Notes under the pieces: generated by a model | Databases searched by the model: none | What the model was told of the DNA's origin: nothing | Seen by the model: the letters and a program-made list of their open reading frames with translations, nothing else | Part shown: positions 7,984 through 32,572 of the stretch, piece by piece | How the letters are laid out: each line of letters opens with the position of its first letter | Position numbering within the stretch: the stretch's first letter is position 1 | Position numbers and translations under genes: made by a program | DNA from: an uncultured Candidatus Saccharibacteria bacterium | Lineage (GTDB): Bacteria; Patescibacteriota; WWE3; 2-01-FULL-39-13 | Assembly (NCBI GenBank): GCA_965230915.1 | Contig: OZ246395.1 | Location: forward strand, 339,535 to 403,534 | Reading direction: 5' to 3' | DNA length: 64,000 bases

Positions 7984-8115
7984 ACGTAGAAATTTAAAGG
8001 TGGAGCGATAGTTAATTTGTTCCACCTAACATAGCTAGGTTTAACGCTGTAATATTGATTTATAGCTAGTTTGTAAGTTTAATCTGTGTGTCTAATAATT
8101 TCAGGTATTGCTAGT

Positions 8116-9014: not shown

Positions 9015-9029
9015 GCTACAATTAAAATT

Positions 9030-9434: not shown

Positions 9435-9877
9435 TTATTTTATTAATTCTATTTGCCGGATACATTATTGGCCTTGGAGCTGTTACTGTAATTGATTTGC
9501 ATGGATTTCTCGGTAGAAAGTCTTCGTATTGGACACACGCAACAATCGTTACGCATAAAGTAACAAAACCATTGATTTGGCTAGGAACCTTTCTAGTTTT
9601 GATCGGAAGTTTTTTATTTTATAACTATGTCGCTGTCGTTAATGAGATTTCATATGTTCACTGGCTAATGATTCTTGTTTTGATATTAAATGGATTATTC
9701 TTAAGTTTTTGGGTTAGTCCAAGATTGTTACAAAGAGAAAAAGAAGGCCGATCTAATGAGATTTTGCCAGATAGCTGGCAGAATGCAATTTTTGTAAGTT
9801 TTGTGTTTTCGTTTACAGGGTGGTGGAGCAGCCTCATTTTATTCTTATACTATCTAGTGTCGATCTATAATATTTAG
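9419..9877 (+). CDS. Hypothetical membrane protein
   Basis: 152 aa, four hydrophobic segments; overlaps the TspO stop; no motif recognised. Confidence 0.4.
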   Translation: MVEQIIILLILFAGYIIGLGAVTVIDLHGFLGRKSSYWTHATIVTHKVTKPLIWLGTFLVLIGSFLFYNYVAVVNEISYVHWLMILVLILNGLFLSFWVSPRLLQREKEGRSNEILPDSWQNAIFVSFVFSFTGWWSSLILFLYYLVSIYNI

Positions 9878-9898
9878 GTGTGTTAAACTCGATTTACT

Positions 9899-10369
9899 AT
9901 GAAAAAATTAACGACATGTATATGGCTAGATAACGAAGCTGAAGAAGCCGCAAATTTCTATGTTTCTGTATTTCCGGATTCAAAGATAATCCAAACTGAT
10001 AAATATTTATCTGAAACACCTTCAAATAAGCCAATTGGCAGTGTTCTGACTGTAACATTAGAAATATTAGGCGAAAATGAATTCATGCTCTTAAATGGTG
10101 GGCCTTATTTTAAGGTTAGCGAAGCCATTTCTTTTGTGATTCCATGCAAAGACCAAGCTGAAATGGATTATTATTATGATAAATTGTCAGCTGACCCAGA
10201 AGCTGAAGTCTGCGGATGGTTAAAAGATAAATTTGGCGTTTCATGGCAGATAATTCCACATAATTATAATGAGTTAATGAATTCTGCAGACGAAGGTAAA
10301 AGAAAACGTATGTGGGATAAAGTCATGCAAATGAAGAAATTTAACTTGGCCGAGCTAGAGAACGCTTAA
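9899..10369 (+). CDS. VOC-superfamily protein, PhnB/3-demethylubiquinone-9 3-methyltransferase-like domain
   Basis: N-terminus KKLTTCIWLDNEAEEAANFYVSVFPDSKI closely matches the conserved start of the PhnB-like (PF06983) family. Confidence 0.6.
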   Translation: MKKLTTCIWLDNEAEEAANFYVSVFPDSKIIQTDKYLSETPSNKPIGSVLTVTLEILGENEFMLLNGGPYFKVSEAISFVIPCKDQAEMDYYYDKLSADPEAEVCGWLKDKFGVSWQIIPHNYNELMNSADEGKRKRMWDKVMQMKKFNLAELENA

Positions 10370-15615: not shown

Positions 15616-15786
15616 TTATTCCTCCCAGTTGCGAGCCAAAATACTTAAATCTGATAAGTCGATTATTCCATCTGCGTTAAGATCCCCATCGCTTCTTCCG
15701 GATATATTTTTTAACCAGTTATCCATAATAACTTGTAAATCTTTCATATCAAACTTATTATCACCTGTTATGTCTTTTGTTTTAAT
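15616..15786 (-). other. Dockerin type-I module (two ~22-aa Ca-binding repeat segments) at the C-terminus of the giant protein
   Basis: DxNxDGxxxxxDL pattern twice, each followed by a hydrophobic helix ending in W; position corresponds to residues ~2255-2310. Confidence 0.65.
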
Positions 15787-18700
15787 TTCTGTCATTTCGA
15801 GTACTGGTTCAGACGGTTCGGTTACAGGGGTATTTGTCTCACCAGATCTAGGTATATAAGGCGTAATTCCATCACCTGGAATGTCAGCCTCATTTTTTAC
15901 TTTAATATCATTATCTTTTACATATATTTCGGTATCATTTACGTCGATGTCATCATAACGTCCGTCTTCTGAATCTACTTCATATTTAATTTTAACTTTG
16001 TGGTCACCATCTACCGTGTTGTTATCGATTGCTTTTATCTTTACTTTTTTGGATTTTTCCCAGTCATCTGGCTCGATTTCTAAAGTGCTATCGTCAATGT
16101 CGATATACTTTCCATCATCATCTGCTGACAATTTTATTTTTACCTTTTCGGATGGTTGGTCAGAAAGTTCGACCTCGATTGTATCTGTATCTCCGCCTTC
16201 TTCTACTACTGTATCTCCGCCGGTTTCTGTTACTTGAATTTCGACATTTTCTTCTCTTTCATCATCTGTAATGGTTACAACTACATTTGAAATATCCAGA
16301 TCGTCGAAATCACTATCATCTGATTCACTTGAATGTGTAATGGTTGCTGTACGGTTACCTTGAAAATCATCATCGTCAATTCCTGTTACCGTAATACTTT
16401 GCGGTACGTTCCAATCGGATGCTGTAAATGTGAGTTCTGACTCGGAAATTGTAATTTCATCGCTGGTAGTAGCAATATTAATAGTTACATTCGCAGCTGG
16501 AATTGTATTGAGCGAGATTGTATAAATATCGGTTCCGCCGTGCTCATTTACGCTTGTTGATCCGTCGCTTTGAGAAAGTGTTACCCCAGGAACTTCATTG
16601 TCTTCGACAGATACAGTAATTGAGTTGATTGAAATTCCGTCATAGAAATTATCTGTACTTAGTGCTTCATGGTCTATGTTTTTTGATCGTGTTCCATCGA
16701 TAATTAAGTTGTCTACAGCGCTTACAGTTATTGTTTGCGGCGTATTCCAATTTGAAATCGTGAATGTTAATGATGTGGGATTTACTGTTACTCCGCTATC
16801 CGGATCCGGATTTATTATGACTGTATTAGTTGGCTGAGTATTTAATACAACAGTATATGTATCGGTTGTTCCATCTTCATTTACTGTTGTTGATCCTGAA
16901 CTTTGAGACAAAGTTACTCCAGCTGTGTCGTTGTCGGTAACAGTAAAATCGACGCCGGGAATATCGAAATCATTGTAAGAAAGATCTGAACTTGAAACTG
17001 CAAATGATACTGTTCTGGAATGTGATCCTTCGGCAACATTATCGTCTGTTGCAGTGACAGTGACTGTTTGCGCAACATTCCAATTTGAATTTGTGAATGT
17101 TAATGTGCTCGATGATGTGCCCTGTTTGTATGCAGTCGCCTCTGATGTTGCCATTGAAATCGTTACATCTGATGATGGTTGTGTGTCTAGTACAACAGTA
17201 AATGTGTCAGTTGTTCCTGATTCAGAAATTGCTGTGTCTCCGCCAGTTTCAGTTACAGTTATTCCGGATGTATCGTCATCAGTTACGAGTACCGTTACAT
17301 TTGATGTTTTGCCGCTATAGTTTGTATCAGAACTTGATGATGTATGTGTTAGTACATTCGAATAATTTCCCGTGGCAACTGAGTCGTTGTTTGCAGTTAC
17401 TGTAACTGTTTGGGGTGTGTCCCAATTACCTGTTGTAAATGAGAGAGATGTTTTATCAAGATCAACGCTATCATTGCCTGTTATATTTACAGTTACATCA
17501 GAAGTCGGTTGTGATGTTAATACTACTGTATATGAATCAGATGTTTCACCTGCTTCTGCTACTTCTGTTGAGCCGCTACTTTGCGAAATTGAAATTGCGG
17601 CAGTGTCATTATCACTTATATTTACAATAACCTGTCCGATTGTTAACCCGTTAAATGCTCCATCACTTGAAGTTGATGTGTGAGTAAGAGTAGCTTGGTG
17701 CGCACCTTCTGCAATTGAATCATTAAGGGCCGTTATAGTAACTGTTTGTGGAGTATCCCAGTTTAAATCGGTAAATGTAACCGATGGTGCGGATAAACTT
17801 ACTTGTCCACCAGTTCCAGCAATATTTACTGTTACATCTGCGGATGGTTGATTGTCTAAAACAATTGTGTATGAATCGGTTGCCCCGCCTTCTGTTACAT
17901 TTGTGGAACCACCGCTTTGAGTGATTGTTATACCAGGTGTTTCATCTTCGGTAATACTTACCGAAACAGTCGAGATTGAAATTCCATCATAGTTGTCATC
18001 GCTACTTGTTGCAGTATGTGTAATATCTACTGAACCATTCCCAATATAGTTTGAATCATTTGTTGCAATTACAGTGACAGTCTGAGGAGTATCCCAATTT
18101 GAAGTTGTGAATGTTAACGACGACGCACTTAATTGCAGTCTGCTTGTAGTTGATAAATCTACTGTTACATCTGCTGATGGTTGTGAATCTAAAACTATAG
18201 TATAAGTATCAGTCGCTCCACCTTCTGTTACGGCTGTTGTTCCACCTGACTGAGTAACTGTTATTCCAGCTGTATCGTTATCGGTAATATCTACGATTAT
18301 GTCACTAATATTTAGTACGCTATATTTTGTATCGCTACTTGTGATTTCAAAGCTTATATCTCCGGTATGTGACCCTTCTTGAACTTCATCGTCGATAGCT
18401 GTTACCACAATTGTCTGTGGTGTGTCCCAATTGCTTGCTGTGAAAAGAATGTCTGGTACGATTGGGTTTTCTTCATCGGGCGTTAGCGGATCTTGATTTA
18501 AAGCTGTAACTTGTAATGAGCTTAAATCAACACTGACAGATGATGTTGGTTCGGACGCTAAAACAATTGTGAATGTGTCTGTAGTTCCTCCTTCTGTTAC
18601 GTCAGTTCCACCACCCGATTCTGAAATATTTATGTCGGCCGTGTCATTATCTGTAACAGCTGTTGTAACTGAATCGACAGAAATTGCATTGTAGTTTGAA

Positions 18701-21700
18701 TCAGAGCTCGTAGCGGTATGAGTAATAATTGAGTCTTCCGAGTCTTCATCTATATCATCGTTTACGGCCGTAACTGTTACTGTTTGTGCGCTACTCCAAT
18801 CTGAATTTGTGAAAGTTAAAGTACTTTTATCTAGTGAAACTTCTGAGTCATGATCAATAGCAACAGTCACATCGTTTGTTGGTTGTGATGTAAGCACAAC
18901 TGTATATGAATCAGTAGATCCACCTTCTGTTACGGCTGTTGTACCGCTTGATTGTGTAACTGTTATACCAGCTGTATCGTTATCGGTTACTGTTGCTGTT
19001 ATAGATCCGATTGAAATATTGTTGTAATTTCCGTCAGAGCTCGCCGCCGTATGATTTATTGTTCCACTATGTGTTCCTTCGACTATCGAGTCATTTACAC
19101 CAGTAATAGTAACTGTTTGTGGTGTGCTCCAATTTGATGTTGTAAATGTAAGTGTTGGATTATCTACACTGACTTGTGAATCTGGAGAAACCGTAATCGT
19201 AACATCGGATGTTGGTAATGTTGAAAGAGCAATTGTGTACGAATCGGTTGCTCCACCTTCTGTTACATTTGTTGAGCCAGAACTTTCTGAAACTGAAACG
19301 CCGGCAGAATCATTATCAGTGATTTTTACAGTTTTTGTGGGGAACGAAAGTCCATTATATTTAGCATCGGAGCTTGTTGCCGTATGTGTAATTATTCCGT
19401 TGTGTGCACCTTCGGCTGTTAAATCGTCGATTGCTGTTGCAGTAATCTGTTTATTTGAATTCCAGTCTGAAGATGTAAAAGTCAAACTTGTCGGTGAAAC
19501 TTGTACTTGGGAATCTCCGCTTATGCTGACAGTAACATCAGATGTTGGCTGCGTATTTAATCTAATTGTATAAGTTGCAGTTGCGCCGCCTTCTGTAGCG
19601 TTAATTGATGTCGATGGTGTAATACTTCGTCCGGCTGTGTCGTTGTCTGTAATCGTGTATGTATAAATTACGTTTGATCCTAAAGTACCATTTGTCGGAC
19701 TTGAAAGTGTAACAATTATAGTTTCGTCATCTTCATCGATTTGATCATTAACAATTGTTACTGGAATTGTAGTTGTTGTGTTTCCAGCTGTAACAGTTGC
19801 GGTTCCACTTGCGAGCGTGTAATCTGTTCCGCTTCCAGATGCTGTGCCACCTGTTACGGCGTAGTTAACTGAAACATTTTGTGATGTTGCTGTCGAAATT
19901 GAAATTGGCAAACTAACAGAGGTTGTTGCTTCATCTCCACTTGCTGCAGTTGAAGTAAATTGAATACTTGGAATTGCTGCCGTTGCAAAGTCAGTACTTG
20001 TTTCAGTGTTTCCTCCAAATGGAACCCATGCGGAAGTGTTTCCTAACGAGTCTACAACTCGGGCTTGCCAATGATAATTTAATCCAACTGTTAGACCAGT
20101 CACACTAATTGTAGGATTTGCTTCAGATCCGGAAGTTGCCACAGGTACACTTGAAAAGTTTGCCGTTCCCGTAAATGCAGTTGTTGTCGGCTGAACTTCA
20201 GCCTGAAGAGTTAGGGTATCAGGATTATCTGCGTCATTTACTGTTGAGCCTATACACATCGCTGTTCCGTTTACAAAACCGCCAATATTTAAGGCAGATG
20301 TACAGTTAGTTTGATATTGTGCAGTCAAACTAATTGCAGGTGTCGACATGCTCTTAATAGAAACATCGTCGTAAGTCAAAGTAATTGGAGCTGAACATGT
20401 TGAAGATATAAAAGATCGAATTCCTGATGCGCCGGAATTTTGTAAGTTTGATTCTGAGTCGGTTGTAGTTAAGTCCCAAGATGTAGGTTCGGTTGTTCCA
20501 TCTTGCCATACTTTCATTCTTATTGTTGTAGGACTTGTTCCGTATGTTTGAACTCTTAGTTTATAAAAAGTATCTGCAGTAAAAGTTTCACGAGATACGG
20601 TTGTGTCTGCCGAAATTGTTGTAAGTGAAGTTGAACCGAGCAATTTTCCTGCTAGTAGTTTTAAACTTGTACCTGAAAACTGAAGTCGGTGTCTATATTC
20701 CCAATTAGTAAGTGAAGCTTGCTTTCGACTAACTACATATATAGTTTGTGTTTCATTTGTTATTGGAGCTTTATTCGATTTAACTTTAAATGTCATATCG
20801 CTATTTAATACATCCAGTCCGTCTAGCCTTTCTTGATTAGTTGTATTACAGCTTCCATGAACAGACAAACCTTGTGTTCCATTTATAGAATGCGATCCTC
20901 CTGACCCCGATTGAGCAGTTGTCCATGTTTGGCTTCCGGTTTCTGTTGTTCCCCATCCCGATGCCGCAGTTCTTGTGAATGTATCTGCAACATATGTAGT
21001 TCCGTTAAATGGAACGCTGGACACAACATTTTCGAATGATCCGATATCCATAGTTGTATTTTGTGGTATTGAGGTTCCGTCAGAGTCTTCATTCATGAAC
21101 GAATAAGCGAGCATTTCAGAATCATTAGAACCTATATCAATTGCCGGGCTTCCCGATTGTAATCTGAAGTTTCCATTCGCGGCGTCAACGAAAAGCGGAT
21201 CAACTTTTTGTGAGGTTCCATCGATTGTATAGTTTTGTGTAAATTGAGATGGAAATGGCGATCCGTCACCATCCCAGAAAATGTTATTTGTTTCTATAGG
21301 AGTCTGCCCAGTTCCAACGTATATTGCTTTAGTTCGTGCCCAAATAATATTATTCCGCATTATCAAAACATCTGTGTCGCATCCGCTACAACTTATTCCC
21401 TGTGAATCGTTCGTGCTTGATGAGTAATATGTGTTGTTGTATAAGCGAACTCCGAGAGTCGGTCCGAATGTAATGTTTTTACCATGAATAACAATAAATC
21501 TTGCTTTATCCTGGTCAGTAGATACTACGTTATAAGCGAAAACAATATCTTCGCTATTAAAATCCAGATCGTCAGTTTTTCCACCAATTTCTGAAAAAAC
21601 TCTATTCCCAATCGAAACATTGTGGTGAATAACATTTCTTTTCGCGTCATAAACTTCAATTGCATTACTTTCGATCATTCCGGATTCGGGCGGACAATTT

Positions 21701-22548
21701 GCTTTATTGTCCTTCATGAAATTGTAGGCAACTATATTGTCATTACCTTTTATATCGATTGCTTTAGCTCCATTTAGTGATTGTTGAGGAACAATATCGT
21801 TAGCAGCTGCAGTATTTTCTGAAATATCATTATATATAATAGTAAGATGATGAGGAGTTACACTCGCATCTGCTTCATTCACTTGAACATTTATCCCTCT
21901 AGAAAATTGCGTAATGGTGCTGTTTTGAATAGTAATATGGTGAGATGTTGTACCAACTTTTACTCCGTAAAAATATCCGAATGCCATGTCAGGGCAAAGT
22001 GTAAATCCCCCTTCTGCTTCAGTACCATGCGGCAACGTTGACTGGTCTGCCGTTAGTTTTAGATTCTCGATAGTAATGTAAGTTCCAATAACTTCGATGG
22101 CCGTGCTTGTATCAGGGTAATCTAGCCAGAGAATTGGTTGAGCGCCTGTTCCATATGCCCCAATTGTAATTGGACTTTCACTAGTTCCAGTCCAATCTGC
22201 TTTAATATTGTATCCGGTAAAATTGCACCCTCTATTTAAGTATAAATTCTCACCAGCAGATAAATTTACTTGTGTGCCATCTGCACCTCTACCAGTAAAA
22301 CGCTTTAAAGTTTTATATGGAGTTCCTGAAGTTCCATCGCCATTATCGTTTGCAGCATTACAATCAACATAGTAATCCCTTGCAAATGCCGAAGCCGGTT
22401 TTACTAAAGTGAAAAATACAAAAATAAGTGGAAGAATAAAAAAAAGAATCCGAAGATTCTTTGTCGGTGCATCGCCCGCAGTGTAATTCAAGAAACCATT
22501 AAGATTATTCCGAGCATGTGGACGGAAGGGCATTTTTACAAATAACAA
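15616..22548 (-). CDS. Giant (2310 aa) secreted multidomain protein: right-handed beta-helix (pectin-lyase fold) + lectin-like middle region + ~11 tandem Ig/Calx-beta-like repeats + acidic stretch + C-terminal dockerin
   Basis: Signal/TM peptide at the N-terminus; beta-helix-type repeats with NxxI/NN ladders in residues ~60-520; tandem ~105-aa repeats with consensus DNDTAGITVTQSGGTTAVTEGGATDSYTIVL.SQP..DVTV...LTFT.SNW.TPQTVTVTA.ND; two dockerin type-I Ca-binding segments at the C-terminus (DITGDNKFDMKDLQVIMDNW and DLNADGIIDLSDLSILARNW). Confidence 0.85.
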   Translation of the reverse strand: MLFVKMPFRPHARNNLNGFLNYTAGDAPTKNLRILFFILPLIFVFFTLVKPASAFARDYYVDCNAANDNGDGTSGTPYKTLKRFTGRGADGTQVNLSAGENLYLNRGCNFTGYNIKADWTGTSESPITIGAYGTGAQPILWLDYPDTSTAIEVIGTYITIENLKLTADQSTLPHGTEAEGGFTLCPDMAFGYFYGVKVGTTSHHITIQNSTITQFSRGINVQVNEADASVTPHHLTIIYNDISENTAAANDIVPQQSLNGAKAIDIKGNDNIVAYNFMKDNKANCPPESGMIESNAIEVYDAKRNVIHHNVSIGNRVFSEIGGKTDDLDFNSEDIVFAYNVVSTDQDKARFIVIHGKNITFGPTLGVRLYNNTYYSSSTNDSQGISCSGCDTDVLIMRNNIIWARTKAIYVGTGQTPIETNNIFWDGDGSPFPSQFTQNYTIDGTSQKVDPLFVDAANGNFRLQSGSPAIDIGSNDSEMLAYSFMNEDSDGTSIPQNTTMDIGSFENVVSSVPFNGTTYVADTFTRTAASGWGTTETGSQTWTTAQSGSGGSHSINGTQGLSVHGSCNTTNQERLDGLDVLNSDMTFKVKSNKAPITNETQTIYVVSRKQASLTNWEYRHRLQFSGTSLKLLAGKLLGSTSLTTISADTTVSRETFTADTFYKLRVQTYGTSPTTIRMKVWQDGTTEPTSWDLTTTDSESNLQNSGASGIRSFISSTCSAPITLTYDDVSIKSMSTPAISLTAQYQTNCTSALNIGGFVNGTAMCIGSTVNDADNPDTLTLQAEVQPTTTAFTGTANFSSVPVATSGSEANPTISVTGLTVGLNYHWQARVVDSLGNTSAWVPFGGNTETSTDFATAAIPSIQFTSTAASGDEATTSVSLPISISTATSQNVSVNYAVTGGTASGSGTDYTLASGTATVTAGNTTTTIPVTIVNDQIDEDDETIIVTLSSPTNGTLGSNVIYTYTITDNDTAGRSITPSTSINATEGGATATYTIRLNTQPTSDVTVSISGDSQVQVSPTSLTFTSSDWNSNKQITATAIDDLTAEGAHNGIITHTATSSDAKYNGLSFPTKTVKITDNDSAGVSVSESSGSTNVTEGGATDSYTIALSTLPTSDVTITVSPDSQVSVDNPTLTFTTSNWSTPQTVTITGVNDSIVEGTHSGTINHTAASSDGNYNNISIGSITATVTDNDTAGITVTQSSGTTAVTEGGSTDSYTVVLTSQPTNDVTVAIDHDSEVSLDKSTLTFTNSDWSSAQTVTVTAVNDDIDEDSEDSIITHTATSSDSNYNAISVDSVTTAVTDNDTADINISESGGGTDVTEGGTTDTFTIVLASEPTSSVSVDLSSLQVTALNQDPLTPDEENPIVPDILFTASNWDTPQTIVVTAIDDEVQEGSHTGDISFEITSSDTKYSVLNISDIIVDITDNDTAGITVTQSGGTTAVTEGGATDTYTIVLDSQPSADVTVDLSTTSRLQLSASSLTFTTSNWDTPQTVTVIATNDSNYIGNGSVDITHTATSSDDNYDGISISTVSVSITEDETPGITITQSGGSTNVTEGGATDSYTIVLDNQPSADVTVNIAGTGGQVSLSAPSVTFTDLNWDTPQTVTITALNDSIAEGAHQATLTHTSTSSDGAFNGLTIGQVIVNISDNDTAAISISQSSGSTEVAEAGETSDSYTVVLTSQPTSDVTVNITGNDSVDLDKTSLSFTTGNWDTPQTVTVTANNDSVATGNYSNVLTHTSSSSDTNYSGKTSNVTVLVTDDDTSGITVTETGGDTAISESGTTDTFTVVLDTQPSSDVTISMATSEATAYKQGTSSSTLTFTNSNWNVAQTVTVTATDDNVAEGSHSRTVSFAVSSSDLSYNDFDIPGVDFTVTDNDTAGVTLSQSSGSTTVNEDGTTDTYTVVLNTQPTNTVIINPDPDSGVTVNPTSLTFTISNWNTPQTITVSAVDNLIIDGTRSKNIDHEALSTDNFYDGISINSITVSVEDNEVPGVTLSQSDGSTSVNEHGGTDIYTISLNTIPAANVTINIATTSDEITISESELTFTASDWNVPQSITVTGIDDDDFQGNRTATITHSSESDDSDFDDLDISNVVVTITDDEREENVEIQVTETGGDTVVEEGGDTDTIEVELSDQPSEKVKIKLSADDDGKYIDIDDSTLEIEPDDWEKSKKVKIKAIDNNTVDGDHKVKIKYEVDSEDGRYDDIDVNDTEIYVKDNDIKVKNEADIPGDGITPYIPRSGETNTPVTEPSEPVLEMTEIKTKDITGDNKFDMKDLQVIMDNWLKNISGRSDGDLNADGIIDLSDLSILARNWEE
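16400..19950 (-). repeat. In-frame tandem coding repeats (~315-330 nt units, ~11 copies) encoding Ig-like/Calx-beta-like domains
   Basis: Protein-level periodicity of ~105 aa with conserved VTEGG.TD.YT..L...P..DVTV...LTFT..NW..PQTVTV core; copies are divergent at the nucleotide level. Confidence 0.7.
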
Positions 22549-23129: not shown

Positions 23130-24350
23130 CTACTCATATCTTAACGCCTCAATCGGCTGCAATTTCGACGCCTTTTGTGCTGGGTACCATCCGAAAATTA
23201 TTCCGATTAAACACGAGACTCCTGCTGATAATAAAATTGCATTTGGCGCGAATACAAATGACAGGTTCATTAACTTGGTGATTCCGTAAGATGCTCCTAC
23301 CCCGATTAAGATTCCGATTATTCCTCCTGTTATAGTTAGCACAACTGCCTCGACTAAAAACTGTGTAACGATTGTTCGGCGTTTTGCTCCGAGGGCTTTT
23401 CTAAGGCCTATTTCCATTGTTCGCTCGGTGACGGTTACTAGCATTATATTCATGATTCCAATTCCTCCTACTATTAAAGAGATTGCGGCGATTCCAGCTA
23501 ACAATGATGTGAAGGTTCCGGTTACTTCGCTGATTGTGTCGAGTAAATCTTCTTGTGAAGAGATTGAAAAATCGGCATCGTCTGGAGTATCTAGATTATG
23601 GCGCTCTAGTAAAAAGAAACCGATTTGGTTTTGTGCAGCTTCCATTACGTTTTCGTCTTTTGCAGTTACATAAATTGTCGAAACGTAATCGACTCCGAAT
23701 AATATATTTTGTGCAGTTGAAAGTGGAATGTAAACGGCTTCGCTTGAACTTCCGAATCCAGAAACTTCTTCGGAGATTCCAACGATGTCATAAGTGCTGC
23801 CTTCGATTTTTATTTGTGCCCCAACGCCTGTGCTGGAATTTCCGAATAATTCGGTTGCAACATCGGGAGTTATAACTGCAACTTTTCTTGTAGATAAAAT
23901 GTCGTCGGTTGTAATTGGGGATCCAATTGTTACTTCTATATTTCGTAAATCAAAATAATTTTCACTGACTCCAATTACAGTTGCGTTCATGTTTGCATCT
24001 TCGTATGCTAGCTGCCCCCTCGAAGAATATTCTGATGCAACTTTATCGATTGTTGTTATTCGATCTTCTGTCGCGATGGCTTCGGCGTCTTGTAAAGTTA
24101 ATGTAGTTCCGCTTCCTGATTGTCCGCCAAGAAAGCCGCCACCGCTACTTGCACCTGGTCTAATAGTTAATAAGTTTGCTCCTAAAGATTGTATTTGAGA
24201 TTTGATGCTTTCCTGGCTTGCTTGTCCAAGAGACATTAATGCAATAACTGATCCGACACCAATAATTATTCCGAGTGCAGAAAGTGCTGTTCGCAGTTTG
24301 TTTGTTGTTAAGACTGATATGGATTCCTCAAAAATTTCTATTAAGTTCAT
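23130..24350 (-). CDS. macB: ABC transporter permease, MacB/FtsX family (large periplasmic domain)
   Basis: N-terminal TM, ~220-aa periplasmic domain, three C-terminal TM helices with the FtsX fold; start overlaps the ATPase stop (4 nt). Confidence 0.85.
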   Translation of the reverse strand: MNLIEIFEESISVLTTNKLRTALSALGIIIGVGSVIALMSLGQASQESIKSQIQSLGANLLTIRPGASSGGGFLGGQSGSGTTLTLQDAEAIATEDRITTIDKVASEYSSRGQLAYEDANMNATVIGVSENYFDLRNIEVTIGSPITTDDILSTRKVAVITPDVATELFGNSSTGVGAQIKIEGSTYDIVGISEEVSGFGSSSEAVYIPLSTAQNILFGVDYVSTIYVTAKDENVMEAAQNQIGFFLLERHNLDTPDDADFSISSQEDLLDTISEVTGTFTSLLAGIAAISLIVGGIGIMNIMLVTVTERTMEIGLRKALGAKRRTIVTQFLVEAVVLTITGGIIGILIGVGASYGITKLMNLSFVFAPNAILLSAGVSCLIGIIFGWYPAQKASKLQPIEALRYE

Positions 24351-25033
24351 TTTTTGCCCTTCCCTTTCGTGTCGCTGACGAGTTTGCCGTCAACAAGTTT
24401 TATAACTCGGTTCGCACGTTGTGCGATTTCATCATTGTGAGTAATTACTATAATAGTATGTCCCTTTTTGTTTAGGTCCTTAAAGATGTCGATTATTTCA
24501 TCGCTTTGATTTGTAGGAAGGTTTCCGGTTGGTTCATCGGCTAATAATATAGATGGTTCCATTGTTAGAGCGCGGGCGATAGCGACTCTTTGTTTTTGAC
24601 CTCCGGAAAGTTCATTAGGTCTATTTGAAAGTTTATTTCCAAGTCCGACAACATTTAAATATTTCTGTGCACGTTCCAATCTTTCAGATTTAGAGAGTCC
24701 ACCATAAGCCATTGGCAACGAAACATTTTTTAATGCGGATGTTCTTGGTAATAAGTTGTATGACTGAAAAATAAATCCAATTTCTTTGTTTCGAATTTCA
24801 GCGAGTTCGTCGTCGCTTAAATTTTCTACGTTTTGATTATTTAAAATATATTGTCCGCTAGATGGAACATCGAGAGCTCCGAGTATATGCATGAGTGTAG
24901 ATTTACCAGAACCAGATGGGCCGATTATCGCGACAAATTCTCCTTTATCAATTTTAAAGTTGATATCAGATAAAGCGTGAGTCGTAACGTCTCCGTTTAC
25001 GTAAGTTTTAGTGATGTGTTTTACTTCGATCAT
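24347..25033 (-). CDS. ABC transporter ATP-binding protein (MacB/LolD-type)
   Basis: Walker A GPSGSGKST, signature LSGGQKQRVAIARAL, Walker B ILLADEPTGNL, H-loop ITHN. Confidence 0.9.
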   Translation of the reverse strand: MIEVKHITKTYVNGDVTTHALSDINFKIDKGEFVAIIGPSGSGKSTLMHILGALDVPSSGQYILNNQNVENLSDDELAEIRNKEIGFIFQSYNLLPRTSALKNVSLPMAYGGLSKSERLERAQKYLNVVGLGNKLSNRPNELSGGQKQRVAIARALTMEPSILLADEPTGNLPTNQSDEIIDIFKDLNKKGHTIIVITHNDEIAQRANRVIKLVDGKLVSDTKGKGKK

Positions 25034-25034
25034 G

Positions 25035-26264
25035 TTATTGTCTAACTCTTACTGCTCCGCCTGTTCCGAATGTGCCGATACGAACATTGTTTTGTGTGTT
25101 TGTATTCGTAAAGCCACTCGTCGAAAACGCCGTTACAATAACTTCATCGCCTTCATTTACCCCACTAATAATTTCTGTGTTATCATCGCCGATTAAGCCA
25201 GTTTGAACTTCGACTTTTCCATTTAAAGTTGTTACATAGGATTTGCCATCTCTATCTTTTGTAACTGCACTTGATGGAACCGAAACCACATCAGCTTTTT
25301 CTTCGACAATTATTTCGGCATCAACGCTCATGTTTGGTAAAACGTTTGGAGAATCGTTTTCGAATTGAATTATTACCGGATAATTCGAAACTCCATTTGA
25401 TGACTCGCCTATTCTGTCGATTCCGACAACAGTTCCTGTGAAAGTTTCATCTTTAATACTGCTCATAGTTAAGTTAACTTTTTGCCCGACTTTTATTTTA
25501 TTTATATCGACTTCGGTTATGTTTACAGTTGCAAGTGGAGTTCCCTCTTGTTTAATTGATGCGACAGTTTGAATTGATTTTTCGGATACAGAGTTTTCAA
25601 CTTTCATACCTGCGACTGCTACGATGTTTGCGACTGTTCCGCTAGCCGGAGCTGTAATTATCGGAGATTGCGATTGGTAATTTATTGATGATGAACTTAA
25701 CGATAATTGTTGTTGCGAAATATTTTTGGCTTGTAAATCGTATGATTGTTTCGCAGAAACATATTCTGCATATGCAGTATCGTATTCTAATTTTTCTGCA
25801 TCGGTTTGATAGCTCGTTCGTTTTTTAACTTCATCAAGTTTCGCTTCTTTTTGCTTTAATGTGTTTTGAAGATTTACGAGTTGATTCTTAGCTTCTTGAA
25901 GTTGAATTTGCGATCCGGTGTAACTTGCGAGTGAACTTGTTTGGCTCGCCTCCCCTTCGTTGTCTAGTGTTACTTCCATTAATTTCTGACCTTCGGTAAC
26001 TGTGTCACCTTCTTTTACAAAAACTTCTTTGATGATTCCATTTACTGAAGTTGTTACCGCTAGATAGTTAGCAGTTGCGATTGTTCCCGATGCTGCGATT
26101 GTGGACTTAACTGTTCCACGTTCAGCAGTTCTGGTAAGAGTTGGAAGTTCTGATGTAGATGAATTACTCATGGAATTTTTATAGTAGAAGTAGCTTACGC
26201 CGCCGACTACTATAAGGATTGCAGGAATGATCCATTTATAGTTAGTTTTTAAATATTTTTTCAT
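25035..26264 (-). CDS. macA: Periplasmic adaptor subunit, HlyD/MacA family
   Basis: N-terminal TM anchor, long coiled-coil (QLQEAKNQLVNLQNTLKQKEAKLDE...), beta-barrel/lipoyl-like segments; translationally coupled to the ABC ATPase. Confidence 0.8.
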   Translation of the reverse strand: MKKYLKTNYKWIIPAILIVVGGVSYFYYKNSMSNSSTSELPTLTRTAERGTVKSTIAASGTIATANYLAVTTSVNGIIKEVFVKEGDTVTEGQKLMEVTLDNEGEASQTSSLASYTGSQIQLQEAKNQLVNLQNTLKQKEAKLDEVKKRTSYQTDAEKLEYDTAYAEYVSAKQSYDLQAKNISQQQLSLSSSSINYQSQSPIITAPASGTVANIVAVAGMKVENSVSEKSIQTVASIKQEGTPLATVNITEVDINKIKVGQKVNLTMSSIKDETFTGTVVGIDRIGESSNGVSNYPVIIQFENDSPNVLPNMSVDAEIIVEEKADVVSVPSSAVTKDRDGKSYVTTLNGKVEVQTGLIGDDNTEIISGVNEGDEVIVTAFSTSGFTNTNTQNNVRIGTFGTGGAVRVRQ

Positions 26265-26309
26265 ACGCGAAGTATACGCCTAGAAAACTGAAAAGGTGCT
26301 GAGAGAGTA

Positions 26310-26819
26310 TTAATTTGTGAATTCTTGTATGAGCTTACTCAATAATTCTATTCTACTTTTCTCAGCCTCCAACAAATGTAATGGAAAGTGTTGTTCATAC
26401 TTATGGTGGATTAATTTGTCTTTTTTGGATAAAAATTGTGTATGGAATACTTTTTTGCACATATCGCTACTGTATCCACTGATATTATGCCCGAGGATTG
26501 TTAATAGAAGCCCTTCTAGACAGGGTGATGAGAAATAAACGCGGAAATCATACTGCTTGATTTTAGCTTGGTATTTTTCTGAAATAGGCATATCAGAGTC
26601 AAGCAGAATAAACTTTTCGTTGAAATCAAACGCCTTTACTTGCCTTATCGCGTGGTCTATTACACTATGTGGTCCTCCACCACCTCCGTTTGTTATTACT
26701 ATTCTAGTTTCATTTTTTTTCGCATATTTGCTATTGATATACCGCATTAAAGCTTCTTCCGTCGGACCTTCTCCATAAGCAAGTTTAGTTTTAAGTATTG
26801 GGCGGATGAATCGTCTCAT
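26310..26819 (-). CDS. RloB/DUF4276-like small protein (TOPRIM-like) - partner of the AAA_21 ATPase
   Basis: 169 aa; N-terminal LAYGEGPTEEALMRYI resembles the (V/C)EG.TE motif of RloB/DUF4276; C-terminal SSPCLEGLLLTILGH resembles the NPcFE.WlLlH motif of RloB; starts 3 nt after the ATPase stop. Confidence 0.5.
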   Translation of the reverse strand: MRRFIRPILKTKLAYGEGPTEEALMRYINSKYAKKNETRIVITNGGGGGPHSVIDHAIRQVKAFDFNEKFILLDSDMPISEKYQAKIKQYDFRVYFSSPCLEGLLLTILGHNISGYSSDMCKKVFHTQFLSKKDKLIHHKYEQHFPLHLLEAEKSRIELLSKLIQEFTN

Positions 26820-26822
26820 ATT

Positions 26823-28034
26823 CTATATATTAGGTAGTCCTCCGTACGCTCCAGAGAAGTACTTAGCATGTAAATTTTCGTCCGGTCTTATTCCCTTAAT
26901 ACTATCAAGTCGCCATACGATGCTGCTTCCTTTTCTATCCTCCTTTTCCACCATTAATATTTGATATTTATCGAGTTTATTGAATATGTGGTACTGATGT
27001 GTTGTGAATATGAACTGGGCATTATTCTCGTTTATATCTTTAGATGTAAATAGATTTATCAGTTCATTTACCATATTAGGGTGCAGAACATTGTCAAATT
27101 CATCTATGATGGCAACGCTACCTTTCTTGATTGCTACTAGCATTATTTTCAGCAAATGTATTAACCGTCTTGTACCGCTAGATTCTAGTTCATACGGTAT
27201 TATAAATTCATTTTTTAGGAATTTATGAAATCCAAATGCGCTATATTTCGCATTGGATTTTTTATTTTTTTGTTTTTCGTCATCTTCAGTAAATGTGAGT
27301 AAGTCGTGCATACCAATATCATATTTTTTCAAGAGGTCAATGATAACCAGCTTTATTGCTTTGTTTTCTTCAAGGAATTCAATTAGGCTATTTTCATTAT
27401 CGTCTGCAGATTTTCTTTCATGAAGGATATCAGTGTAAGCTATGCTGCAATAAATCGAATGCCAATAATCAAATATGTCGCTTATGTATTTGTTGTTAGA
27501 TTTCTCAACAACAGATAAAAATGAAGCATTTGGGGGCACTAGTTCCCTAAATTTAGCGACTGAGGACAATTCTTCTGAAAATTTATATACATAATTATTA
27601 CTTTTAAATTCTCTTTGGAATAAAGATGCATATCGATTCGTTTTATGGTTCCATATTTTTAGTGACTCTGACTCAATTATATTTTTATTTAGAGTAAGAC
27701 TATACTTAAAGACATTCTTTTGTGTCTCAAAGGTTACTGACAAGTCTGTAGGTTTACGATTATCAGGTAGTCCGAAGGTCACGAAAGGCATGTACCTAGA
27801 TTTATTTTGGCTAAATGATTCTGTTAGAACCCATTTTATGAAGGGAATTACTCTTAGGGCATTCGTTTTCCCGGTCGCATTAGCTCCAGTTATGGCGAGA
27901 ACCTTAGTTATTCGTCCATTATTTCTAGACTTTATATATGATTCTGAGAGAGGGGCTTTGTTATTAACCTCTAAATCAACCGTAGCTTCCTTAAGAAAGG
28001 AGTAGAAGTTTTTAAAAGTATAATTATGGATCAT
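26823..28034 (-). CDS. AAA_21-family ATPase (AbiLi / RloA / PD-T4-4 A-type)
   Basis: Walker A ITGANATGKTN near the N-terminus, long insertion, then ABC-signature-like ESSGTRRL, Walker B SVAIIDEFDNVLHP and H-loop FTTHQ near the C-terminus: the split ABC-like NTPase layout of PF13304 proteins. Confidence 0.8.
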   Translation of the reverse strand: MIHNYTFKNFYSFLKEATVDLEVNNKAPLSESYIKSRNNGRITKVLAITGANATGKTNALRVIPFIKWVLTESFSQNKSRYMPFVTFGLPDNRKPTDLSVTFETQKNVFKYSLTLNKNIIESESLKIWNHKTNRYASLFQREFKSNNYVYKFSEELSSVAKFRELVPPNASFLSVVEKSNNKYISDIFDYWHSIYCSIAYTDILHERKSADDNENSLIEFLEENKAIKLVIIDLLKKYDIGMHDLLTFTEDDEKQKNKKSNAKYSAFGFHKFLKNEFIIPYELESSGTRRLIHLLKIMLVAIKKGSVAIIDEFDNVLHPNMVNELINLFTSKDINENNAQFIFTTHQYHIFNKLDKYQILMVEKEDRKGSSIVWRLDSIKGIRPDENLHAKYFSGAYGGLPNI

Positions 28035-28130: not shown

Positions 28131-29063
28131 ATGTTTACAAAAACTATATTTGCTTCGAAAGTCTCAACAGATGTGAAAAATGCGATAAAAGACTGTCTTT
28201 TATGCTTTATATACCGTAAGCAAGACTTGATTACATTTCTTAAATCTTGTAATTTTACGAGCCAAGATTTGCGCATGGTTACTACAAATCTCACAAAGTC
28301 TCAAATAATCGACATGTCATTTTCAAATATTGAATCTAGGCCGGATAAAGGGGTCGTCCAATATAAGTCTGTGATTGAGACTTTGATCTTTTGGAGTGAT
28401 TTTGATTCCTATTGGTTTAGAAACGGCAACTTAGATAAGGATGTTGCAATTGAAAGTCAAAATAGGTTAAAGAAAATTCTTAGTGTGAAAACGGATCAGG
28501 ATAGACTCAAACAAGAGGAGATTCAAAGAAAAACTCAATTAGAATCGATTAAAAGCAAGCAAAAGACGCTAGAAGACTTGAATGAAAGGTTTACAGTTCT
28601 ATGTAAAATGTCTGAGAATGCGCAGAAAAGAGGGATTGAATTCGAGAAATTCTTAGTGGACTTGTTTAACTTGTCTGATATAAAAATTGACGCCCCGTTT
28701 AAATTAAAAGGAGAACAGATTGATGGAAGTATAAATTTAGGGGGCAATAATTATATTTTAGAAGCTAAATGGCAAGATTTAGCTTCTGCCAACGATCAGC
28801 TATATCAATTTGCTTATAAAATTGAAAGCAACACCCTCTATCCTAGAGGGATATTTATATCTATAAATGGATACTCTAGTGAAGTTATTGATAGAGTTAC
28901 CCATAATAAGAAGCCACAGTTAATATTAGTTGATGCTAGCGATCTGCTTTTCGTATTAGAAGGACGTGTAAATTTATCAGATTTGCTGAACTTGAAAATA
29001 AAACATGCACAAACTCGAGGGGAAATTTATATAAACGCTTTTAAATTATTAGAAGCTAAGTAA
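28131..29063 (+). CDS. Mrr-like PD-(D/E)xK restriction-endonuclease-domain protein with N-terminal unknown domain and coiled coil
   Basis: C-terminal half: GIEFEKFLVDLF ... KGEQIDGSINL ... YILEAKWQD matches the Mrr_cat core (G.FE; D.G.ID; E.K). Transcribed divergently from the ATPase with only 6 nt between a TATAAT box (28113-28118) and the ATG, suggesting a near-leaderless mRNA. Confidence 0.5.
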   Translation: MFTKTIFASKVSTDVKNAIKDCLLCFIYRKQDLITFLKSCNFTSQDLRMVTTNLTKSQIIDMSFSNIESRPDKGVVQYKSVIETLIFWSDFDSYWFRNGNLDKDVAIESQNRLKKILSVKTDQDRLKQEEIQRKTQLESIKSKQKTLEDLNERFTVLCKMSENAQKRGIEFEKFLVDLFNLSDIKIDAPFKLKGEQIDGSINLGGNNYILEAKWQDLASANDQLYQFAYKIESNTLYPRGIFISINGYSSEVIDRVTHNKKPQLILVDASDLLFVLEGRVNLSDLLNLKIKHAQTRGEIYINAFKLLEAK

Positions 29064-29082
29064 TATTTTGTATGCTTTCAAT

Positions 29083-29157
29083 GATTAATCCGTGATTCAA
29101 GTTGTCGACGGAGAGATAAAGATTTTGACTGAAGGAATTGTTAAGAAATACAATTAA
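29083..29157 (+). pseudogene. Degraded duplicate of the 3' end of the peptidase-S51 gene (last ~25 codons, with an in-frame stop)
   Basis: Hand alignment gives ~78% nt identity over ~78 nt to 31191..31268, including an exact 17-mer GTTAAGAAATACAATTA. It translates in the same frame to D*SVIQVVDGEIKILTEGIVKKYN* versus DNSAIQVVNGEMKIIGEGVVKKYN*. Confidence 0.5.
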
Positions 29158-30143
29158 CTTCCAGCTTTTCTCAACTCCTCCAACAACCTCTCTTCCACTT
29201 CAACCTCCCCTGCTTCCATATTCATCTTCAAAGTTTTATTACTCTGTTCTCCGGAAACAAAAATCTCGTCCACTCCATCTAACTTCTTTGCTCCCTTTAT
29301 AGCTCCAACAATTCTTGAATTCTCCTTCTTAAAATCATCTGCACTTGTCAAAATATTTGGATCAATCGCGATAACAAGATTTCCGGAATTATCGCTGTCG
29401 TCATCAAATGAATCGGCTTGAACTAAAGAGCCGGCGAATATTTGAACGATCAATGCGAGGCCAGAGCCTTTGTGTCCGCCGAAAGTTTTTATTGCGCCGT
29501 CCATAATTTCTGCTGGATCAGTGGTTTCGGCACCAGTAGAGTCGTATCCCAAGCCTTCTGGTAATTTGCGACCAGCGGTCTTGGCTTCGATTAATCCGTA
29601 ATATGCGATTGCTGATGTCGACATATCTAAAATTATTGGATCACCTTCGGTTGGAACTCCATATGCAAATGGATTTGTGCAAAACATTGCTTCGATAGAT
29701 CCGAACGGCGCAGTCGTTTTAAATGGAGCTGACGCGAATGCGATTCCAATTAAATTTTGTTCTGCAATTTTTTGAACATAGTAGCCGAGAGCTCCGGTTG
29801 ATTCGCCGGTATTAAAATTTCCGGCAATTCCGATTCCTGATTTTTTAGCTTTCTCGATTGCGATATCGCATAACGAATCCATGACGACCATTCCGTTTGT
29901 GTGATTTCCATTAACTAGTGCTGATACCGGAGTTTCTTTTATGGTTTTTGGTTCAGATGCTTCAGGATTTTTTGGAAGCCCATTGCCGATTAATTTAACA
30001 ACGCCTTGGTTGCTGCCACGAAGTTGAGCGTACATTAAAACTTTTAATATTGTTTCTGCCTCTTTGTCGGTGTAATTAAATTTTTCGATAAGTATTTTGC
30101 GGGCGAGATCTTGTAATTCGGTTATGGCGATTTTTGTTTTCAT
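29154..30143 (-). CDS. Ldh_2-family (malate/L-lactate dehydrogenase-like) oxidoreductase
   Basis: N-terminal ELQDLARKILIEKF...EAETILKVLMYAQLRG and C-terminal HKGSGLALIVQIFAGSL segments match the PF02615 fold. The catalytic His of the usual SHG motif is replaced (SNQG), so activity is uncertain. Confidence 0.55.
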   Translation of the reverse strand: MKTKIAITELQDLARKILIEKFNYTDKEAETILKVLMYAQLRGSNQGVVKLIGNGLPKNPEASEPKTIKETPVSALVNGNHTNGMVVMDSLCDIAIEKAKKSGIGIAGNFNTGESTGALGYYVQKIAEQNLIGIAFASAPFKTTAPFGSIEAMFCTNPFAYGVPTEGDPIILDMSTSAIAYYGLIEAKTAGRKLPEGLGYDSTGAETTDPAEIMDGAIKTFGGHKGSGLALIVQIFAGSLVQADSFDDDSDNSGNLVIAIDPNILTSADDFKKENSRIVGAIKGAKKLDGVDEIFVSGEQSNKTLKMNMEAGEVEVEERLLEELRKAGS

Positions 30144-30192: not shown

Positions 30193-30630
30193 ATGAACGA
30201 TGAATCAATACAACCTGTAGAAATCGATCTAACATTATTAGCTGAACAAGCTCTTGAAGACCATCAAAATAAAGATACTTACATAGTATTAGATCCTGAA
30301 AATGGAACCGAATCAGTACATCCATATTTCTATTGGGATGCTGCTGCTGCGGTTATCTCAAGAATTATTGAGGAATCAGGTATTGACCCCATTGATCTAT
30401 TTAAACGACTTAAAGATCAAGGTGGATATGAAGACAAGCCTTGGAAATTTAGTTCAATTTCTAGTGGCGCGGTTGAGGAATATGGAACTTTTGGTGAAAT
30501 GTTTTTGAACTTTTCTAGAGATGCACTTTCTTTGAAAATGGTCGAAATGAATCCGAATGTCTATGATTTGGATGAAGAAAAAAGAAGGATTGCTGGAACT
30601 AATAATCCAACTTATTTTGAGGATTCTTAA
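30193..30630 (+). CDS. Hypothetical acidic protein
   Basis: 145-aa ORF; its stop overlaps the pepE-like start (ATGA); no motif. Confidence 0.4.
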   Translation: MNDESIQPVEIDLTLLAEQALEDHQNKDTYIVLDPENGTESVHPYFYWDAAAAVISRIIEESGIDPIDLFKRLKDQGGYEDKPWKFSSISSGAVEEYGTFGEMFLNFSRDALSLKMVEMNPNVYDLDEEKRRIAGTNNPTYFEDS

Positions 30631-31268
30631 TGAAACTCATCCTCTCCTCATTTGGAATCACCAACCAAACAATCGCAAATTCGCTTCAACAATTAGTCGG
30701 TAAATCGCCTTCTGAAACAAAAGTCGGATTCATTCCAACCGCTGCAAATATTGAACCCGGCAACAAAGACTGGTTCTTTTCGCAAATCGATGGGCTTCAC
30801 AAATTCGGATATAACTATGTAGATGTAATCGATATCTCCGCCAGCGATGTAGATTGGCGCGAGCGCTTATCTCAAGTCGATGTAATTTTTATGAGTGGCG
30901 GAAACACATTCTATCTATTAAAATGCATTCGCGATTCTGGATTCGACCTTTGGTTCAAACAAAATCTCGATAAATTTGTGTATGTCGGTTCGAGCGCCGG
31001 AGGAATTGTTTGTACTCCGACGATTGCGATTGCAGGTGTTGAACCTGGTGATATTAATTATTCTAAATTAACAGATTTAACTGCGATGAATTTGGTCGAT
31101 TTCGAGGTTTCTCCACATGTTCCAGAAATGCTGCCTTACGAAAATAATGAAGCTTATGCAAAAACGATCAAGAATACGCTTTATTGTTTAGACGATAATT
31201 CTGCGATTCAGGTTGTGAATGGTGAGATGAAGATTATTGGTGAAGGTGTTGTTAAGAAATACAATTAG
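30630..31268 (+). CDS. Peptidase S51 (dipeptidase E-like) family protein
   Basis: FIPTAA...FMSGGNTFYLL..GSSAG pattern typical of the Ser-His-Glu triad context of PepE/cyanophycinase-like class-I glutamine-amidotransferase-fold peptidases. Confidence 0.7.
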   Translation: MKLILSSFGITNQTIANSLQQLVGKSPSETKVGFIPTAANIEPGNKDWFFSQIDGLHKFGYNYVDVIDISASDVDWRERLSQVDVIFMSGGNTFYLLKCIRDSGFDLWFKQNLDKFVYVGSSAGGIVCTPTIAIAGVEPGDINYSKLTDLTAMNLVDFEVSPHVPEMLPYENNEAYAKTIKNTLYCLDDNSAIQVVNGEMKIIGEGVVKKYN

Positions 31269-31376: not shown

Positions 31377-31835
31377 TCATTTATTAATACCTATGCTATG
31401 TTTCATTCTCATGCCTAAGCCTATTGCCTGTAAGTCGATACCATTTTCTTTTGCCCAATTTTTGAATTCTGTCCTTTCGGTTTCCCTTTTTTCTTTAATT
31501 TGTTCGCGTGTTAAACTTTCAAAATTCGGCCTATTGTTTTGTCTTTCTTCTAGTTTTGCCACTAATTTTGTTTTTTGATCTTCGGAAAGTTTCCCTTCGC
31601 TAACCAAAGAATTTAATTTTGTTTCTAGATTAGCCGATCTGGTCTCGTGCATTTCGTCTCGGTGCTCGTCGAAAACTTGTTGCACATCATCTTTATTAAG
31701 ATTAAATTTTTGTGCAATTCTATCTACAATCGACGTTCCTGCCATTGTCGTCGATTGAGCGTTTATAGTCCCTACTCCTAATGTCGCGAGTGTTACAACT
31801 GCGGCTGCACTTGCTAGTAATATTTTTTTGTTCAT
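31377..31835 (-). CDS. Secreted hypothetical protein (signal peptide, Lys/Glu-rich helical)
   Basis: N-terminal LLASAAAVVTLATLGVGTINAQS signal; remainder charged and helical. Confidence 0.45.
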   Translation of the reverse strand: MNKKILLASAAAVVTLATLGVGTINAQSTTMAGTSIVDRIAQKFNLNKDDVQQVFDEHRDEMHETRSANLETKLNSLVSEGKLSEDQKTKLVAKLEERQNNRPNFESLTREQIKEKRETERTEFKNWAKENGIDLQAIGLGMRMKHSIGINK

Positions 31836-31959
31836 ATAGTTTTCACCCCCTTAGATGATAGTTCGAGTATTGCAACCGTGGCTGAGATTATCCTGTAGTC
31901 TTTTTTGGTATAATAATGGCCGCACAGTAAATCCAATATATAGAGATAGGAGAAAGCAA

Positions 31960-32469
31960 ATGTTTTTTGTGCCAGTAATGTATGATAGCAATCCGGATGC
32001 ACGTTTTGACTTGAGCAAAGAGCAAGTCAAAGGTCTGAAATCGCTCTACGTCTACATCTTTGGTAACGATTGGAAGTACGAGCTAGCGATCTTATTCGCA
32101 TTGCTCGGAGGGCATATGGCTCGGATGTTCTTAAGTTCTAAAGAAGAGGAATTTATTGAGGGCAGCGTTGTTTTCATGTATGGGTTTAAGGAATTGTTTA
32201 TCCCTTGGGCAAACAGGCTTCTTCTGAAACCCGAGGTGAAGGCTAAGGTGACCCATATTATGCTTCTCGTTCTTGAGATCAAGTTTGGTGATTTATGGCC
32301 GACTAAGATCGCCGAATTCACTTCAAACTATTGGGTGCCTACAAAATCTGCCGTACTCGAAGTCAGCGTGCAGGAAACATTTTTGCACGAAGTTGCGGAA
32401 TTAGTGCAACGCTATCCGATCGAGTTTATCGAGTGGATGGCAAATACGCCGGGCAACAAACCCGAATAA
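31960..32469 (+). CDS. Hypothetical protein (GC-enriched ORF)
   Basis: Extended -10 (TGGTATAAT at ~31900) and AGGAGAAAG SD precede the ATG at 31960 (the track ORF starts earlier at 31855); ~45% GC versus ~33% in neighbouring genes. Confidence 0.4.
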   Translation: MFFVPVMYDSNPDARFDLSKEQVKGLKSLYVYIFGNDWKYELAILFALLGGHMARMFLSSKEEEFIEGSVVFMYGFKELFIPWANRLLLKPEVKAKVTHIMLLVLEIKFGDLWPTKIAEFTSNYWVPTKSAVLEVSVQETFLHEVAELVQRYPIEFIEWMANTPGNKPE

Positions 32470-32489
32470 CTGTGCTTTGTGCCCACCTG

Positions 32490-32535
32490 ACCTACTGGCG
32501 GTTATTTTTACCGTCAGTAGGTGTTTATTTTTTAT
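32490..32535 (+). terminator. Rho-independent terminator
   Basis: ACCTACTGGCGG-ttattttta-CCGTCAGTAGGT (12-bp stem, one G-U pair) followed by GTTTATTTTTTATT. Confidence 0.6.
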
Positions 32536-32572
32536 TCAGCCAAACCTCAGAAACAAAACTATAATATTAGTT

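Follow-up and report, generated by a model that had tools for sequence, protein, structure and literature searches.

We found that the short spacer between the Mrr-like gene and the ldh gene of the window (the whole 64-kb stretch of DNA that was analysed) is, judged by its sequence, the non-functional remainder of a second copy of the neighbouring Peptidase_S51 (pepE-like) gene, of which the last 31-33 codons survive. This relic, which we call copy A, and the intact resident gene, copy B or pepE_B, lie in the following arrangement, in which L043 is an 8.4-kb JGI contig that represents the nearest syntenic relative.

23130-24350, minus strand: FtsX (Pfam)
24347-25033, minus strand: ABC (Pfam)
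25035-26264, minus strand: HlyD (Pfam)
23130-26264, minus strand: left flank, conserved; FtsX-ABC-HlyD, an exporter operon of the MacB type (Pfam; blastn to L043)
26310-26819, minus strand: AbiLii / RloB-like (PADLOC AbiLii, E = 5e-15)
26823-28034, minus strand: AbiLi-like AAA_21 ATPase (PADLOC AbiLi, E = 1.8e-69; Pfam)
28131-29063, plus strand: Mrr_cat restriction-endonuclease-like, rightmost gene of the variable slot (Pfam PF04471)
29062-29157, plus strand: pepE relic (copy A), last 31-33 codons, reading ILYAFND, a stop, SVIQVVDGEIKILTEGIVKKYN and a stop; 74-77% identical to the resident tail
29154-30143, minus strand: Ldh_2-family oxidoreductase (ldh), convergent with the relic (Pfam PF02615, E = 9e-78)
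30193-30630, plus strand: hyp145, ORFan with an acidic product, in divergent orientation to ldh and coupled in translation to pepE_B
30630-31268, plus strand: pepE_B, intact Peptidase_S51, 212 aa (Pfam PF03575, E = 1e-28)
31173-31268, plus strand: 3' end of pepE_B (copy B, intact) that is homologous to the relic (ungapped comparison, repeat search)
31377-31835, minus strand: orf152, conserved right flank, homologous to orf170 of L043
right of orf152, plus strand: extra ORF, then a response regulator and a histidine kinase (gene map)

The homology between the relic and the resident gene was evident in every comparison. When 29083-29157 was set against 31194-31268 without gaps, 58 of the 75 bases were identical (77.3%), which agrees with the identity of about 78% given by an earlier, sequence-only reading of this stretch. 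That reading had proposed a comparison with shuffled controls, and the relic came through it clearly: its local alignment score was 71, while 200 dinucleotide-preserving shuffles of the relic query, searched against both strands of the whole 64-kb window, scored 29.2 +/- 2.6 with a maximum of 41, placing the real score 16 standard deviations above them, and blastn of the relic against the pepE tail gave E = 9e-11. A repeat search returned 29062-29156 and 31173-31267 as the longest direct repeat (95 nt, 74%). In tblastn, the resident pepE protein matched the window with its residues 180-212 at 29056-29154 (E = 7e-8), and the L043 pepE orthologue matched the relic with E = 4e-9. To the left of about 29057, identity with pepE fell to about 24%, the random level, and the relic thus begins at the Mrr stop codon, or immediately beside it, and extends over about 95-100 nt or 31-33 codons; the alignment with the pepE-like gene end that had been made by hand was correct in kind and too short in its extent of 75-80 nt and 25 codons.

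Translated in the pepE frame, the relic reads D, a stop, SVIQVVDGEIKILTEGIVKKYN and a stop, while the intact gene ends in DNSAIQVVNGEMKIIGEGVVKKYN and a stop; the two translations had been exchanged in the sequence-only reading, and it is the relic that carries the internal stop, an in-frame TAA at 29089-29091. The only start codon that the relic could offer is a GTG lacking any context. The identical block at the two gene ends measures 19 nt (29138-29156, TTGTTAAGAAATACAATTA) rather than the 17 nt counted before, and the final TAA of the relic (29155-29157) does overlap the stop of the minus-strand ldh gene (29154-29156), by 2 nt. The match is in frame, colinear and significant and ends at the stop codon, as expected of a remnant of a Peptidase_S51 gene. 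A functional member of this family (PF03575) has a full-length domain of about 200 aa, with the catalytic region in its N-terminal and central parts, as the resident gene at 30630-31268 does, whereas the relic comprises only residues 180-212, is interrupted by an in-frame stop and has no start. We searched the 64-kb window by tblastn with pepE for other pieces of the gene, including its 5' part, and found none. A third blastn match, at 57405-57433 (E = 0.005), was considered as a further copy and rejected as a chance match, which lies in no reading frame.

Homologues of Mrr of 300-313 aa align with it from end to end, showing that it is full length, and the relic junction thus follows immediately after an intact gene. 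The junction is no assembly artefact, since L001 and L002, Logan assemblies made independently from different runs, were 100% identical across it. To the left of Mrr, the adjacent same-strand genes for AbiLi (AAA ATPase) and AbiLii (RloB-like) have the composition of an AbiL system, for which an anti-phage role is predicted. Homologues of Ldh carry annotations from Candidatus Dojkabacteria and from further CPR lineages, and the organism itself is a CPR bacterium of Dojkabacteria-like type. On the other side of ldh, the ATG of pepE_B overlaps the stop of hyp145 (TAATG). A few kb to the left of the exporter operon, a very large ORF (2310 aa, starting with TTG) occupies 15616-22548 on the minus strand. 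The extra ORF to the right of orf152 (31870-32557; 31855/31960-32469, plus strand; 169-204 aa) had no family match, and L043 has only about 70 nt (7148-7217) at its position, which constitutes a second indel between the window and L043.

Comparison with L043 placed the relic at the edge of a variable slot. The gene order in L043 is VTT, FtsX-ABC-HlyD (minus), KTSC (plus), an Old-family nuclease (plus), pepE (plus), orf170 (minus), a response regulator (plus) and a histidine kinase, while in the window it is FtsX-ABC-HlyD, AbiLii-AbiLi-Mrr, the pepE relic, ldh (minus), hyp145 (plus), pepE, orf152 and the response regulator-histidine kinase pair. Blastn of the window against L043 gave five colinear blocks: 23131-26305 matched L043 774-3992 (73%), the relic at 29057-29157 matched the L043 pepE tail at 6443-6542 (76%, the identity of the relic to this tail being 74-76% overall), pepE_B at 30630-31175 matched 5904-6449 (80.6%), and orf152 and the response regulator/histidine kinase matched the right side of L043 as the fourth and fifth blocks. 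At the protein level, pepE_B and the L043 pepE were 80% identical. The sole pepE of L043 begins exactly where the slot ends, and the window relic adjoins the slot at the same place; ldh and hyp145 are absent from the corresponding position in L043. In the window, the left edge of the slot lies at about 26305, where homology to L043 ends, and the right edge at about 29057-29062, inside pepE-derived sequence. Thus, the earlier view of the fragment as a scar bordering the ATPase/RloB/Mrr islet gains support from L043, while the simple insertion splitting a gene that it invoked does not fit, the 5' half of such a gene being nowhere in the window.

The slot itself holds AbiLi/AbiLii and Mrr_cat in the window and KTSC and Old (PADLOC) in L043. 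In L042, a 144-kb contig whose pepE is 77% identical, this gene is directly preceded by a KAP-family NTPase of 906 aa and an ORF of 95 aa (6956-9997); the pepE side is common to L042 and the window, and the left flank is different. The locus thus resembles a defence hotspot in having the same conserved genes on both sides in the window and L043, with different defence systems between them and the KAP_NTPase upstream of pepE in L042. For the recurrence of this pattern across the taxon, only three genomes were informative. The relatives that bear on the history of the relic were L043, L071 and L042, none of them a close sister of the window genome. The more distant loci (L045-L047 and L027) had no defence genes upstream of pepE. 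No integrase, transposase or recombinase domain was found by Pfam in the slot genes, and the G+C content of the slot is slightly below that of its flanks. Apart from the pepE tails, a search for repeats bounding the islet or the ldh-hyp145 pair gave only short matches at chance level. The pepE genes of the window and L043 differ by a dS of 0.88 (80.6% nucleotide identity), while the better-conserved ABC gene shows a dS of about 2.7 and the operon 73% nucleotide identity. The lower dS of pepE than of the ABC flank may reflect recombination between lineages at the right border of the slot.

To reveal how the relic has evolved, its substitution rates were compared with those of other pepE tails by the Nei-Gojobori method over 30 codons. 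The relic differed from the resident copy by a dS of 0.74 and a dN of 0.25 and from L043 by a dS of 1.46 and a dN of 0.16; with some 18 synonymous sites behind them, these values are no more than indicative. Most of the substitutions relative to the resident tail are synonymous or conservative. In addition, the relic has kept the ancestral clade residues VVDG and KILTEG, and the derived IQ and VKKYN are common to it and the resident copy. The ratio of dS to dN, the synonymous pattern and the retained residues together indicate that the relic was coding and under purifying selection for most of its divergence. The duplicate, described earlier as degraded, is barely so: it has one nonsense codon, and its substitutions are those of a sequence that was coding until fairly recently. 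At silent sites, the closest relative of the relic is, by these estimates, the resident copy. We also considered that the relic might be the original tail of the resident gene, with the tail of that gene having been swapped, as the complementary blastn coverage of the L043 pepE by the two window segments could be taken to indicate. This was rejected, because the tail evolves fast in all pairs; between L043 and L042, pepE identity is 67% in the tail vs. 90% upstream, and the fast evolution of this region explains why the blastn match of pepE_B to L043 ended at the tail.

A counterpart of the relic was found in L071, the 1.2-kb contig k141_2659345 (ENA ERZ27256991), which comes from a closer relative than L043 and whose ldh product is 91.5% identical to that of the window. 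Its order is ldh (minus), hyp145 (plus) and then a pepE tail, a full pepE being absent after hyp145. The tail, about 40 nt at L071:1090-1135 (IKDLGEGIVKKYN), lies in the pepE frame directly after the hyp145 stop, and its own stop codon is changed to CAA. It sits where the window has the intact pepE (position B). Its alignment score was 41 against pepE_B (shuffles 18.9 +/- 2.4, maximum 30) and 45 against the window relic (shuffles 16.1 +/- 2.6). The gene before it, hyp145 (145 aa), had a single homologue among 5.8 billion proteins, 66% identical and located on L071 next to ldh; it had no match in Pfam, NCBIfam or PADLOC, and its AlphaFold model reached a mean pLDDT of 62.6, which is of low confidence. 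With 66% vs. 91.5% amino acid identity between the window and L071, hyp145 evolves much faster than the adjacent ldh. The dS of ldh between the window and L071 is 0.33, below the value of about 0.74 between the two pepE copies of the window, which implies that the copies predate the window-L071 split.

These findings lead us to favour, with moderate confidence, a history in which the arrangement pepE_A-ldh-hyp145-pepE_B was once present and one copy was lost in each lineage, the window losing the 5' 540 nt of A and L071 most of B. Under this scenario, pepE forms the right border of a variable slot after FtsX-ABC-HlyD in a small Dojkabacteria-like CPR clade, and the ancestor of the window genome and L071 would have carried pepE_A, a convergent ldh, hyp145 and pepE_B in this inferred order. 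With two pepE copies present, one would have been dispensable. About the first 540 nt of copy A would have been removed in the window lineage when AbiLii-AbiLi-Mrr was installed or remodelled, while its last 95 nt or so would have stayed, enclosed by the stop codons of Mrr and ldh, so that the right breakpoint of the slot would now lie at about codon 180 of copy A. In the L071 lineage, copy B would have been cut to about 40 nt. Because there is no other pepE piece in the 64 kb and Mrr is full length, the junction is the end-point of a deletion or replacement and not of an insertion that split a gene. That a complete copy A existed in the window lineage, and that its truncation and the turnover of the slot were one event, we infer from the arrangement. 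Both tight junctions, where the relic and ldh overlap in their stops and where hyp145 and pepE_B overlap in TAATG, fit long-standing gene boundaries. The evidence from L071 comes from a 1.2-kb contig that holds only ldh, hyp145 and the tail. The sequence-only reading had offered, besides a scar, a duplication of the ldh-hyp-pepE segment as a whole. This has no support, since the window has one copy each of ldh and hyp145, and only pepE sequence is repeated.

Additional searches were performed for further relatives. The resident pepE belongs to a small clade of homologues with 77-82% identity, while the best Ldh homologue in the relatives search was 68% identical. In a GTDB scan anchored on ldh (38 loci), no pepE was convergent on ldh, and pepE lay within 5 kb only in L027; the ldh neighbourhoods were unrelated among 27 CPR loci. 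None of the 27 loci of a metagenome scan anchored on the pepE clade had an adjacent ldh, the close clade being represented there by one 1-kb contig, and the gene list of the contig with the closest pepE (P0122, 82%) is without ldh. A genome with two intact pepE copies was found neither among the 38 GTDB loci nor among the 27 metagenome loci. Look-ups of the exact Ldh, pepE, ABC and orf152 proteins for strain variants free of the islet returned only the same arrangement, from two sequencing runs. In L027:10001-15445 (Dojkabacteria UBA2022), ldh, an orf152-like gene, the response regulator, the histidine kinase and pepE lie within 5.5 kb in another order and orientation. This neighbourhood is loosely conserved, and the proximity of ldh to pepE may be older than the L043 comparison suggests.

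Another possibility, which we regard as rather unlikely though deserving of consideration, is that a donor segment starting about 100 nt before the end of a donor pepE and running through ldh and hyp145, perhaps including pepE_B, was recombined beside the slot, in which case the window lineage would never have had a complete gene to which the tail belonged. This would require one event fewer for the window, and it agrees with the absence of ldh and hyp145 at this position in L043, with the otherwise unrelated ldh neighbourhoods across 27 relatives and with the contrast between the pepE and ABC dS values to L043, a hint of exchange between lineages around pepE. However, this reading still calls for a donor in which pepE converges on ldh, and none of the scanned loci showed one. 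The tight junctions, stop against stop on the left and TAATG on the right, also look like long-standing gene boundaries, and the L071 relic at position B places pepE sequence on both sides of the module before the window-L071 split. The direct repeats of 95 nt with their 19-nt identical end block, together with the tail copy flanking the other side of ldh-hyp145 in L071, could also be taken as attL and attR, left by a site-specific element that integrated into the pepE 3' end and supplied a substitute gene end. We consider this quite improbable. Between or beside the repeats there is no integrase or recombinase, only Ldh_2, hyp145 and pepE; the displaced fragment sits upstream of pepE_B and on its strand, which is the wrong side for integration at a 3' end; and the repeats are merely 74-77% identical, with a 19-nt run in 95 nt at 74% identity being compatible with chance (p about 0.07, a rough estimate).

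Still less probable, in our judgement, is that the tail was kept for a function. It might serve Mrr and ldh, which converge on it, as a terminator or 3' UTR, it might be a mini-ORF, or read-through of ldh might produce from it an antisense RNA to the pepE_B mRNA. In its favour, it is tails and not other parts of the gene that have been kept in two lineages, and an antisense transcript of the identical 19 nt, if made, could pair with the mRNA of pepE_B. However, no terminator-like site was found in the relic, its folding was no better than that of shuffled sequences (z of -0.8 and -0.3), there was no Rfam match, no start codon is present other than the GTG already mentioned, and the relics of the window and L071 are unlike in length and in their flanks. 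Lacking a start codon, containing an internal stop, and having neither RNA structure nor membership in a known RNA family, the relic appears to do nothing. A sigma-70-like pair, TTGACT-18-TACAAT (10/12), is present within the relic at 29125-29154 on the plus strand, pointing into ldh in antisense; it is probably due to chance, and the region has fewer such matches than its shuffles. Finally, a short segment in an AT-rich genome might owe its similarity to chance, to a low-complexity gene end or to an assembly artefact, an explanation that is excluded by the excess of 16 standard deviations over shuffles, the blastn E = 9e-11, the in-register and in-frame match to the pepE tail of an independent genome and the two identical independent assemblies. 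The concern raised beforehand, that such a tail might be a low-complexity end common to unrelated genes, is answered by the same specific, in-register match to pepE tails and by there being no other copy in the window.

Returning to the loss of one pepE copy in each lineage, we note that the relic resembles gene remnants known from island borders in being a short, promoterless and functionless 3' piece at the junction of conserved and variable sequence. Here, however, the intact partner in the window is a diverged second copy 1.5 kb away rather than the other part of one split gene, and a related lineage has a reciprocal relic of the other copy. The pattern also recalls the reciprocal loss of duplicated genes, with the window keeping B and a stump of A, and L071, on its 1.2-kb contig, a stump of B; the origin of the two copies here is either duplication or import. 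With attL/attR duplications it has in common the direct repeats of a gene 3' end around inserted genes, from which it differs by the lack of an integrase, the position of the fragment upstream of the intact gene and the low identity of the repeats.

In Pseudomonas aeruginosa, the core defence hotspots cDHS1/2 consist of conserved flanks around varying defence systems, and their possible transfer by homologous recombination via these flanks has been discussed (PMC10250203). In E. coli, integration hotspots of defence islands likewise have conserved flanking genes and varying defence systems (PMC10121019). The present locus is similar in its HlyD-side and pepE-side flanks, in the different systems of each genome and in a slot without mobile-element genes. 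It differs in that the known hotspots were derived from hundreds of isolates, while 2-3 uncultivated CPR genomes are compared here, in having no tRNA or tmRNA at its border, and in that turnover cut into a flanking gene. We therefore put forward only tentatively that the 5' flank of pepE is a recombination-driven defence hotspot without mobile-element machinery, in which cassettes are swapped through homology in the exporter operon and pepE. The cassettes swapped in this way may include AbiL+Mrr, Old+KTSC and the KAP NTPase. The similarity of pepE at synonymous sites may be a hint of such exchange, as may the collateral damage taken by a spare pepE copy, with reciprocal stumps in two lineages.

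The relic is in itself an ordinary scar of a known kind, and the modest novelty lies in a pepE-flanked defence slot without mobile-element genes in a CPR lineage. As a by-product, its analysis provides evidence that CPR bacteria have a defence slot bordered by pepE and that the duplicated gene at this border has decayed reciprocally. For annotators, the 90-nt spacer between Mrr and ldh would best be recorded as pepE-derived pseudogene sequence and not as a regulatory element. As a marker, the relic fixes the right breakpoint of the AbiL/Mrr islet to a few bases, and it shows that a deletion or replacement, and no clean insertion, remodelled the slot. Taken with the L043 and L042 loci, the relic points to a pepE-bordered defence hotspot in ultra-small CPR genomes, in which the dynamics of defence islands are little documented.
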